DNA of 64,000 nt from assembly GCF_964204645.1 (NCBI RefSeq), contig NC_134027.1:4310485-4374484 (forward strand), written 5' to 3'. The translations under genes and the position numbers were made by a program. The stretch's first letter is position 1. Each line of letters begins with the position of its first letter. This document shows positions 26,244-29,200 of this stretch, one piece after another. This DNA is from Tubulanus polymorphus (taxonomy: Eukaryota; Animalia; Nemertea). The notes under the pieces were generated by a model. The model had not been told where the DNA came from. It did not search any database and saw only the letters and a program-made list of their open reading frames with translations.

Positions 26244-29200
26244 TCATTGAATTGTTAACACATCATTCTGTATCTCTTGACTCAGATGCACTTGTAAATC
26301 ACTTAGTTTCTTCTTGAAGACCGAGAGTCCAGAATAGATTATATTTTCTGGTTTGAGTGACCCACAAGATTCAACATTGAAGTAAAATTTATTTGGTTTC
26401 CCACTCGGATTAAATGGTGCTTGCACTGAAAAAATATGTTTAAAAGAATAATCCTCAATCAAGCTGCATAAAAATATCATTATAAAATACAAAATATTTA
26501 CCTTCATCTTCTCCTATTTCTGTATATTCACTTTTCGGCCTGAAATAAAATTAGAACACTTACAAAACCTGGCTATGTTCTGACAAAAAGTGACAAATGA
26601 AACTTCAAGAACAATTTCTTGTTGCGCATGCAATCAAAATCTTACCACTCTTCCGGTTTTGGATATGTTGTATGGCGCAATGCATTATCCGGGTCATATT
26701 CAAAAGCAACACCAGCTGTAGGATTCCACTTAGCATGTTCTTTAGCGAATCCCTTCCTTGCAAAGGCACGAAGTTTCAGTTCCTGTCCCTTACGCAGTTT
26801 CACAATGAGAATGTCTGATATAGAAAAAGCCATATGCTAAATACATTTCACTATCAAAGTTGTTGATTATGGGGATGGACATACCTTCAATTTCTCCATA
26901 ATCAGTTCCTTGTTCTCTGTGTCTTGTGGTTACCTGAGTTAAAGAAGAATTAAGTTCAACCATGGCAACATATGTCACTTAGCAACAAAATGGCACAATA
27001 TGGAGGCAAATGATCTCTCAACAGTGCTAGATGGTTTTAGTCTAAGGTACTTGCTTCTGCGCCATTTTGAAGAAGACCAAATGGTTAACATAGATGATGA
27101 GGATGATTCAACCGCTAAAAGATTTTATCCCAAGACCCTACAAAATATCTGTCAAGCAGCCATAAGACGATGTCTAGGTATAAGGGGGTTAGATTTGGTA
27201 AGATTTCTTGTTGAAAATTGAACATTATATCTTTTTCACTCTGCAATGTAAATGGCAATAGTCAATTTCGTATCTTCTGAATTACTCAAAAACAAATATC
27301 CTCGGACAAATAACCTTGTGAATATTTTCAGTGTCAGAAACTTCCTTTGCCAAACGTATTGAAGGATTTAATAAGTAAACTCGAATTGGGTGATTTCTAC
27401 ATATGTCCAGATATGGCTTCACGAGATTATCACTACACCAGAATGTTTCCAGCGAGCTGTCTCATTGATGGGACTATGGTACTCCTCAAATTCTGTCATC
27501 CAGGTATCCAAAGCCATAAACCAAAACAGGGGTCAGAGAACACTATTTTTCACATTTTTTTCTTTTCAAGGTCCAATAATATAAGTGATACATATACTGA
27601 TCAAACTTTCCTCAGATTAGAAAAACTGAATTTCTTAAAACTTAAACACAGCTTGTGCATAAAGTCTGAGCTCCACAGTATACGACATGAAAACGGGAAG
27701 ACACTTTTATTGAATTAATCACACATTTTCATGATTTTTCACAGTATTTCAAGCATACATCTATATTTTTCACGACAATCTGACCCCTGCAATGCATACT
27801 ATTTACTAAATAAGGAGTGTTCAAAGCTATAATGATGATTTTGATTTTTCAGCCCGTTCAATTATTCCTGATGAATGTTACATCAATACATTTCAATATC
27901 ACGACATCTCTTGCCATATCTACTTGAAAACAAGCAGTTTTCCTCAACTGATCGCTCAAAAGAAAGAACAGCAGACGTCATTCACAGAAAAAGAGATCTA
28001 TACATTCACTTTGCAGCTGATTAGAATCTGCAGAAATCTTGCACCTCAGGTGAAAATATTCCCAGAAAACGTATACCTCAACGGAAATGGAGAGATGTTT
28101 TATAGAACATTGGCTTTTCCAGAGAGTGAAATTCAACTGACACTGTTCTGCAGTGATGGCATTTATGAAGCACCAGAATCTTTGAAGGCGGAAAGAGAAT
28201 GTACTGAATACTCGCGTGTGTGGACTATTTGCTGCTTAGTTTATGAAATGGTTACTTATTCTGCAGCATTTAAAGGCTGCTCTCCATTTTTGATAAGCTT
28301 GGGACAAAATCTAGGAAGTTTCATTATCTCCCAGTTACCGCTCCCAAAATTGCCAGATCGATATTCAGAATTGGTACAAAACCTCATTACTTTAGGAACA
28401 AAAAATGACCCGATTGAGAGACCTAGCTTGACAGAATTCAGGCAAATGGTTGAATCACAACTGGAATCTCTTCAATCATAGACTTTGTCTTATTCACTCC
28501 ATACTTATATCATTATACTCACTGGAATGACTTTAGGATTACTTGATATTAGATCAGCTGATGAAACATGTCTTGTCTGGTCATCTGTACATTTGACATC
28601 TAATGTAAATTCCACTGAACAATTAGGACAAAATTCTTCGCATGTACAATCCTTGACAAATGATAACAGAATAAATAAATAACACACACATCGGAAGAAA
28701 GAGACAAGATCGAAACTAAATTGATTAAATTTACCCTTGAATATTGCAACAGTTCGACCTCTTCATCACTAGTGAGTGGAATCAATCCAACTCTGTGAGC
28801 AATGAATTCATCGCTGACAACCGTTGAATTGGCATCTATTTGTACCCAATCAATCGCTGAAGATAAAAAACAAAGGTTCTCCTCAATAATGCGTTTAGTT
28901 GTAAATCAAGTTGTTCTCCAGTGAATCAGATTGACTACTTACCGATTGTTGGCACCTCAGCGATACATATGCGCCTCAAACCATTAGCAACACTGAAAGA
29001 CGACAGAAAAAAAAAAACTTAGTGAAAAACGATTAAGCTACACTCATCTGGTTGCGAGTGCGTTTGGCCTTGGAGGAGTGGACAATTTGAAAATACTACT
29101 AGTAGGGCGAACTCTTTTATCAGATCGGAGAATCCGTTTGCCTCCAATCGTACTCTTTTATTGGTCACGTGACTTTTTGGAGTCTCCGAAACCTCCTCTC

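Follow-up and report, generated by a model that had tools for sequence, protein, structure and literature searches.

The window analyzed here, a stretch of 64,000 nucleotides of the Tubulanus polymorphus genome, carries on its minus strand the gene of RPB3 (POLR2C), which encodes 274 aa in 8 exons and was identified by its Pfam match and by PDB matches at 6e-33 (Table 1). The introns of this gene measure, in order, 345, 86, 83, 1589, 70, 106 and 76 nt, and the fourth houses a second gene on the opposite strand. In run X4, a 1048-nt contig whose listed pieces agree with the window at every letter lacks precisely the 1589 nt of intron 4, which is therefore a genuinely spliced intron; introns 3 and 5 are absent from this contig as well. 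The coding region of the nested gene lies wholly within this spliced intron, leaving only 66 nt of it upstream of the ATG and 41 nt downstream of the stop. The nesting is not an assembly join, since pieces from a second sample bridge both of its ends with 0 differing letters (26856-27006 in X3, 28417-28555 in X2 and X3), and the nested gene itself displays 0 differing letters in X2-X4. Run X5 contains RPB3 in spliced form from a different organism; its matched exons are about 80-85% alike and its joints fall at the same introns or close to them. The run holds no nested-gene piece, which is uninformative at this level of likeness. RPB3 intron 1 carries a MITE with 25-nt terminal inverted repeats and a summed contig depth of up to about 350 times that of its flank. 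A prior sequence-only reading of this DNA, which had described both the MITE in the 345-nt intron 1 and a 1.6-kb intron 4 housing an antisense three-exon gene, is hence confirmed on these points. At the 5' end of RPB3, the start codons of this gene (29423, minus) and of a gene with a CID domain (29644, plus; RPRD1-like, Pfam CID E 6.6e-13) are located about 220 nt apart, and a bidirectional promoter probably serves both of these Pol II-related genes.

Table 1. Coordinates of the RPB3 host gene, of the nested gene and of their main features in the window
Feature	Position	Strand	Basis
RPB3 coding span	26244..29423	-	exons 29338-29423, 28943-28992, 28735-28856, 28523-28651, 26885-26933, 26646-26814, 26502-26539, 26244-26425
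RPB3 intron 4 (1589 nt), host of the nested gene	26934..28522	-	spliced contig and gene model
MITE in RPB3 intron 1	29104..29285		25-nt terminal inverted repeats; contig depth
Nested exon 1 (start 27000 or 27081): N-terminal leader and BC box	27000..27197	+	ORF, Pfam, PDB, family alignment
BC box, residues 46-55, fits (S,T,P)LxxxCxxx-hydrophobic	27135..27164	+	consensus in the accessible part of PMC3355856
Nested intron 1, 134 nt, GT..AG, interrupts the SOCS box	27198..27331	+	family-profile alignment
Nested exon 2: Cul5 box and kinase strands beta1-beta3	27332..27503	+	family-profile alignment
Cul5 box, residues 70-80, starts LPLP	27341..27373	+	LP-hydrophobic-P rule in the accessible part of PMC3355856
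NEK6/7-like beta1-beta3 hairpins, no glycine-rich loop; beta3 Lys119 at 27488-27490	27386..27493	+	alignment; NEK7 match by eye
Nested intron 2, 349 nt, GT..AG, short dispersed-repeat pieces at ~27545-27750	27504..27852	+	contig depth
Nested exon 3: beta4-beta5 straight after beta3 (no alphaC) and C-lobe; stop 28479-28481	27853..28481	+	Pfam, PDB, alignment
First AATAAA past the nested stop, beyond RPB3 exon 4	28670..28675	+	sequence

The three exons of the nested gene total 999 nt, encoding 332 aa plus a stop, and the acceptors of both introns read TTTTCAG. The intact 332-aa frame previously proposed for it, with junctions 27197/27332 and 27503/27853, was borne out by comparison with its relatives in other animals: a profile built from 6 full-length relatives aligns with residues 40-327 of the spliced protein at 160.7 bits, ungapped at both junctions, and these splice sites rank first among the 109 open GT/AG combinations on the family profile (161.2 bits vs 157.8 for the runner-up). 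The GC content reaches 0.39-0.40 in the exons vs 0.29-0.32 in the introns. Residues 1-39 do not align to the relatives, and the start codon may be the ATG at 27000 or the in-frame ATG at 27081, whose 305-aa product resembles in length the mollusc proteins of 302-308 aa. Out-of-frame ATGs at 26962, 26972 and 26990 open frames of 6, 13 and 7 codons upstream of or overlapping the ATG at 27000, and represent possible uORFs or a hint of a true start at 27081. At the other end, the first AATAAA lies beyond RPB3 exon 4, so that the nested transcript would run antisense across this exon in its 3' UTR. Spliced junctions of the nested gene are not found among the contig joints listed, for contigs that carry no strand information. 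In run X4, strandless contigs at depth 9-15 (spliced RPB3 being at 177) cross the acceptor of nested intron 1 and the donor of nested intron 2 unspliced, which is explained equally well by RPB3 pre-mRNA or by DNA, and most of nested exon 3 is uncovered in this run, an absence that carries no evidential weight. The pieces at 27545-27750 in nested intron 2, which match other loci in the runs with a summed depth of up to about 7 times that of the flank, are dispersed-repeat fragments with no further copy within the window.

Relatives of the nested protein were retrieved by HMMER over 1.84 billion representatives. The search returned 54 hits, 16 of which, the best three included, are dead kinases with a common C-lobe motif, the others being mostly active kinases. 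Further searches added 3 clusters, for a total of 19 relatives. Six of these clusters are full-length, each with a SOCS box at its start; the other 13 are C-terminal fragments of 184-224 aa that do not reach the SOCS box, and the SOCS-box counts given below rest on the full-length relatives. Many fragments start near the start of exon 3 of the window gene, suggesting that the last intron is shared with the relatives. The named members span ten species of two phyla, molluscs and an annelid (Owenia fusiformis, Patella caerulea, P. vulgata, four Mytilus species, two Saccostrea species and Mya arenaria), mostly under Nek6-, Nek7- or Nek10-like names, and the identity of the window protein to the full-length relatives is 21-28%. 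Five 302-aa proteins of the Mytilus cluster are entire on Logan contigs of about 1.1-1.3 kb, which are probably spliced transcripts. A word-index search with exon 3 yielded members in 0 of 34 candidates, and with alignments in 5 of 3261 and 2 of 2239; the range of the family is under-sampled, since the alignment searches missed known members. No DNA of a close orthologue turned up. With two relatives as queries, a protein-cluster atlas gave no SOCS-box cluster among the matches listed, small clusters being outside this search. In a quick tree of 55 rows, from which 3 of the 38 non-family hits were omitted (one without a match, two too short), the window protein falls inside the family (SH-aLRT 99) and outside a 13-row group that includes the named molluscs, the nearest sequence being the Owenia protein. 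With a length of 1.77, its branch is the longest in the family, and the program issued a warning about long-branch joins. Overall, this lophotrochozoan family is real and apparently uncharacterised.

Splicing of 27197 to 27332 had been said to rebuild a full SOCS box from two halves encoded by different exons, and the relatives agree with it: the BC box and the LPLP motif occur in the window protein and in 9/9 full-length relatives checked, drawn from the 6 distinct clusters, with 24-25 residues from the start of the BC box to LPLP in all ten sequences. According to the accessible part of a review, an LP-hydrophobic-P motif with Pro at position 4 specifies Cul5 (PMC3355856). The BC box is predicted to bind Elongin C and the LPLP motif to select Cul5-Rbx2. 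Exon 1 alone, which encodes half of the box, matches the Pfam SOCS_box at E 1.8e-4 and 22.1 bits vs a cut-off of 23.5, and its sole match in the PDB is a weak one to the SOCS box of ASB7 (E 0.18). The Pfam SOCS_box is above cut-off in five of the six full-length relative clusters, the Owenia relative scoring only 13.4 bits. In the structural model of a Patella relative (P0019), three SOCS-box helices are found at 24-36, 41-45 and 52-58, with a local pLDDT of about 70.

The SOCS box is followed by a kinase fold stripped of its catalytic centre. Exon 3 matches Pfam Pkinase at E 6.5e-7 and 29.4 bits (cut-off 31.7); exon 2 alone has no match in the PDB, and the single-sequence fold of exon 3 reaches a pLDDT of only 39.9. 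The C-lobe encoded by exon 3 presents YEAPE, W..C..YEM and the subdomain-XI Arg, HRD and DFG being absent; the statements of the sequence-only reading on kinase motifs (VxxK, PEN, APE, W..CxxYEM and P..RPS kept; HRD, DFG and the subdomain-IX Asp gone) all hold. The same losses extend to the family: neither DFG/DLG nor the subdomain-IX Asp was found in any of the 19 relatives, a catalytic-loop HRD in 0/19 (the single HRD match sits in the N-lobe of P0002), and the glycine loop is missing in all 6 relatives that include the region. The GxGxxG, alphaC Glu, HRD and DLG of active NEK6/7 kinases are thus missing from the family. Conversely to these losses, Y[ED][AS]PE is present in 19/19 relatives and the alphaF-alphaG motif L[ED]PA[FY] in 17/19. 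A 20-column gap covers alphaC in the window protein and in 6/6 full-length relatives, vs 0/7 active kinases of the hit list. The AlphaFold2 model of the Patella relative, built on a 22-row alignment (pLDDT 84.9, pTM 0.80), displays a loop joining beta3 to beta4 in place of alphaC, and short helices at the glycine-loop site. From alignment and model, the whole alphaC helix is deleted in the family, a feature absent from the earlier reading, which recognized the kinase fold, upheld here by the Pkinase matches and by the match of the Patella model to the NEK7 fold, and missed both this deletion and the NEK origin discussed below. By its modelled fold and missing catalytic motifs, the domain is a predicted pseudokinase, and, as it is modelled to fold without alphaC, it would represent a minimal one.

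An atypical active kinase bearing a SOCS box is an extremely improbable reading of these proteins. The beta3 Lys that it would need is found in the window protein and in 2/6 full-length relatives, and databases call members Ser/Thr kinases, but these names appear automatic, the beta3 residue is Arg in the other 4/6 and the family is devoid of the glycine loop, alphaC, catalytic-loop HRD and DFG. The Nek6/7/10-like labels on the mussel, oyster, limpet and clam members are then misleading, every catalytic motif checked being missing, and such mislabelled members could inflate the NEK counts of mollusc kinomes.

Descent of the kinase part from the NEK family is well supported. Exon 3 matches NEK7 in the PDB at 5e-7, vs 2e-3 for the next kinase, and NEK7 is the top match by sequence and by Foldseek with the Patella model. 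VIA-align of this model on NEK7 gave a Z of 20.0 (tied with NEK2, PknB and NEK1), an rmsd of 5.2 and 26% identity over 223 aligned residues. By eye, beta1 reads LANFRI in NEK7 and LENFRI in the Owenia protein, and beta2-beta3 reads ACLLDG..V.LK in NEK7 and SCLIDG..V.LK in the window protein. NEK6 and NEK7 (PDB 2wqm, 6s73, 8ws1) are thereby the best match in sequence and structure, with a similar domain size; the family differs from them by the lack of the glycine loop, alphaC, HRD, DFG and subdomain-IX Asp, by about 20 residues fewer between beta3 and beta4, and by the addition of an N-terminal SOCS box. We regard descent from NEK6/7 specifically as likely on the N-lobe signature and the top structure match; against it, the C-lobe scores of NEK11-like and NEK6/7-like kinases are level (103.6 vs 101.5) and the quick tree does not place the family inside NEK6/7. 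An N-lobe profile gave no positive score among 25 active kinases, a void comparison since the animal NEK6 records in it lack beta1-beta3. The family likely has a single origin, before molluscs and annelids diverged, in a NEK6/7-type copy to which an ASB-type SOCS box was added.

One oyster protein, EKC42150.1, may belong to this family. In the accessible part of the oyster kinome paper, it is listed as an unassigned NEK, with 26.1% identity to its best match (PMC4883820 Table S1), marked as expressed in four embryonic-expression columns and down-regulated by one stressor (PMC4883820). The text and supplements of that paper, as far as accessible, contain 0 mentions of SOCS. More generally, the literature search, whose coverage left out most subscription papers, retrieved no description of a family combining a SOCS box and a NEK-derived pseudokinase.

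Within the family, the window copy presents particularities of its own. It is devoid of L[ED]PA[FY] and shows no trace of the N-terminal F/Y-N/D-P motif of the family, and its docking face therefore differs. Together with the longest family branch, the loss of the alphaF-alphaG motif could suggest that the family works as a receptor elsewhere, the window copy being either a duplicate that has moved and is under relaxed selection, or a silent gene. The 66 nt available upstream within the intron, the three out-of-frame ATGs and the unspliced intron sequence in run X4 are compatible with such a decay. Nevertheless, we consider it quite unlikely: the 999-nt frame is open, the splice sites are canonical, the junctions align without gaps and the SOCS box is intact despite a divergence of about 72-79%; moreover, the exon GC is above the intron GC and no second copy of the nested gene was found within the window.

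The nested protein is, with reasonable probability, a substrate receptor of Cullin5-Elongin BC that uses its dead-kinase C-lobe, a function read from its sequence. In this arrangement, the N-terminal SOCS box and the NEK-derived dead domain would together make up the subunit that selects the targets of a Cullin5-Elongin BC ubiquitin ligase. The BC box would engage Elongin C, the LPLP box would choose Cul5-Rbx2, and the retained face of the C-lobe (P+1/YEAPE and the alphaF-alphaG segments, the usual substrate-docking face of kinases) would hold the target for ubiquitylation. Such a receptor is the simplest reading because the Elongin BC/Cul5 handle is kept, the catalytic centre lost and the docking face kept. 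What the sequences show directly is the gene model, the two halves of the SOCS box, the disappearance of the catalytic motifs and the recurrence of this architecture in molluscs and an annelid. The proposal of an undescribed receptor with a dead kinase stands in part: a Cul5-type SOCS box preceding a dead kinase, also in two other phyla, fits a receptor, whereas the architecture is already in public databases as Pfam SOCS_box plus Pkinase, and a pseudokinase connected to Elongin BC/Cul5 is in print with NRBP1.

Elongin BC binding could also serve the stability or turnover of the protein itself, which would then be a pseudokinase scaffold or an allosteric regulator of an active kinase such as NEK6/7. 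A precedent is NRBP1, which binds Elongin BC constitutively and yet is reported, in the accessible part of the preprint, as an activator of the WNK pathway (10.1101/2024.12.12.628181), and the good preservation of the C-lobe across the family would suit a scaffold as well. We hold this to be unlikely, given that the Cul5-selecting LPLP is invariant in 10/10 sequences, whereas the BC box would suffice if the protein only had to bind Elongin. Returning to the receptor, its targets might derive from its ancestry: a lophotrochozoan NEK6/7 would have turned into a natural degrader, delivering to the proteasome what active NEK6/7 binds or phosphorylates, be it NEK9-type activators or NLR-type immune proteins using the NEK7 C-lobe. 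This extension is doubtful; if true, the natural degrader would switch off the pathway of its parent kinase.

Among pseudokinases, Tribbles and STK40 are adaptors of the COP1 ligase in which a dead kinase fold presents the substrate to the E3. They are CAMK-derived and recruit COP1 via a C-terminal peptide; unlike the nested family, they are not known to carry a SOCS box. For two relatives, a ranking by language-model features places Tribbles-like clusters first or second. SOCS boxes are usually C-terminal, and the nested family departs from this placement with an N-terminal one. The Cul5-type SOCS-box receptors (CIS/SOCS, ASB, SPSB, WSB, Rab40, MUF1) resemble the family by a BC box followed by LP-hydrophobic-P, and the partner domains given in the figure legends of two reviews are SH2, WD40, SPRY, ankyrin, LRR and GTPase, none of which is a kinase fold (PMC3355856, PMC4812663). 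If the receptor reading is right, a NEK-derived dead kinase would join these receptors as a substrate-binding fold, in reversed domain order.

A close parallel among pseudokinases is again NRBP1, which co-precipitates Elongin B, Elongin C and CUL5, although its CUL5 binding is disputed and the turnover of substrates unproven in the accessible part of the report (PMC3365428). The principle of a pseudokinase associated with Elongin BC is consequently already in print (PMC3365428, 10.1101/2024.12.12.628181). As far as these partly accessible sources go, NRBP1/NRBP2 share with the nested family the association of a dead kinase, a BC box and a cullin site in one chain, and NRBP1, which binds Elongin BC, is a proposed substrate receptor. 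According to the same sources, NRBP1 is WNK-related, with the pseudokinase followed by the BC box and then by a C-terminal CCT-like domain, and has links to Cul2/Cul4A besides Cul5. The nested family has its SOCS box first, a NEK-derived domain without alphaC second, and no domain after. The parent kinase, the domain order and the loss of alphaC set the nested family apart, and from its sequence features the family would be the second, independent pseudokinase wired to Elongin BC after NRBP1.

The location in an RNA polymerase II subunit gene might evoke a functional nesting, in which the receptor acts on Pol II or is counter-regulated with RPB3 to set Pol II levels. Elongin A-Cul5 and pVHL-Cul2 ubiquitylate Rpb1 (accessible parts of PMC3355856, PMC4812663), an antisense overlap between the nested 3' UTR and RPB3 exon 4 would be expected, and RPB3 lies head to head with the CID-domain gene. 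We find this very improbable: Elongin BC serves many unrelated receptors, those that ubiquitylate Rpb1 being Elongin A and pVHL in the accessible parts of the reviews (PMC3355856, PMC4812663), and nesting concerns about 10% of fly genes, with two thirds of nested genes placed on the opposite strand and most of them unrelated to the function of their host (PMC4394429, accessible part). The functional link to the Pol II host that the sequence-only reading had raised thus finds nothing to support it. The position in RPB3 intron 4 is likely an incidental gene packing, and the nesting adds little unless conserved.

Other features of the window were noticed along this analysis. An (AT)n run of more than 200 nt lies at about 4190-4420. 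An ORF with a DZIP3-like HEPN domain (E 9.4e-11) occupies 17033-17734, beside a trypsin-like gene at about 18400-20600 with Cys-rich and Thr/Pro-rich exons, a label read from the letters, not taken from a profile match. A gene with long exons extends over 32995-36049, with an HMG box (E 2.6e-6) at 34604-34954 and two other long ORFs that have no Pfam match. Finally, the minus strand carries at 42400-44400 exons containing RRM, which we take to be those of an ESRP/fusilli-like gene.
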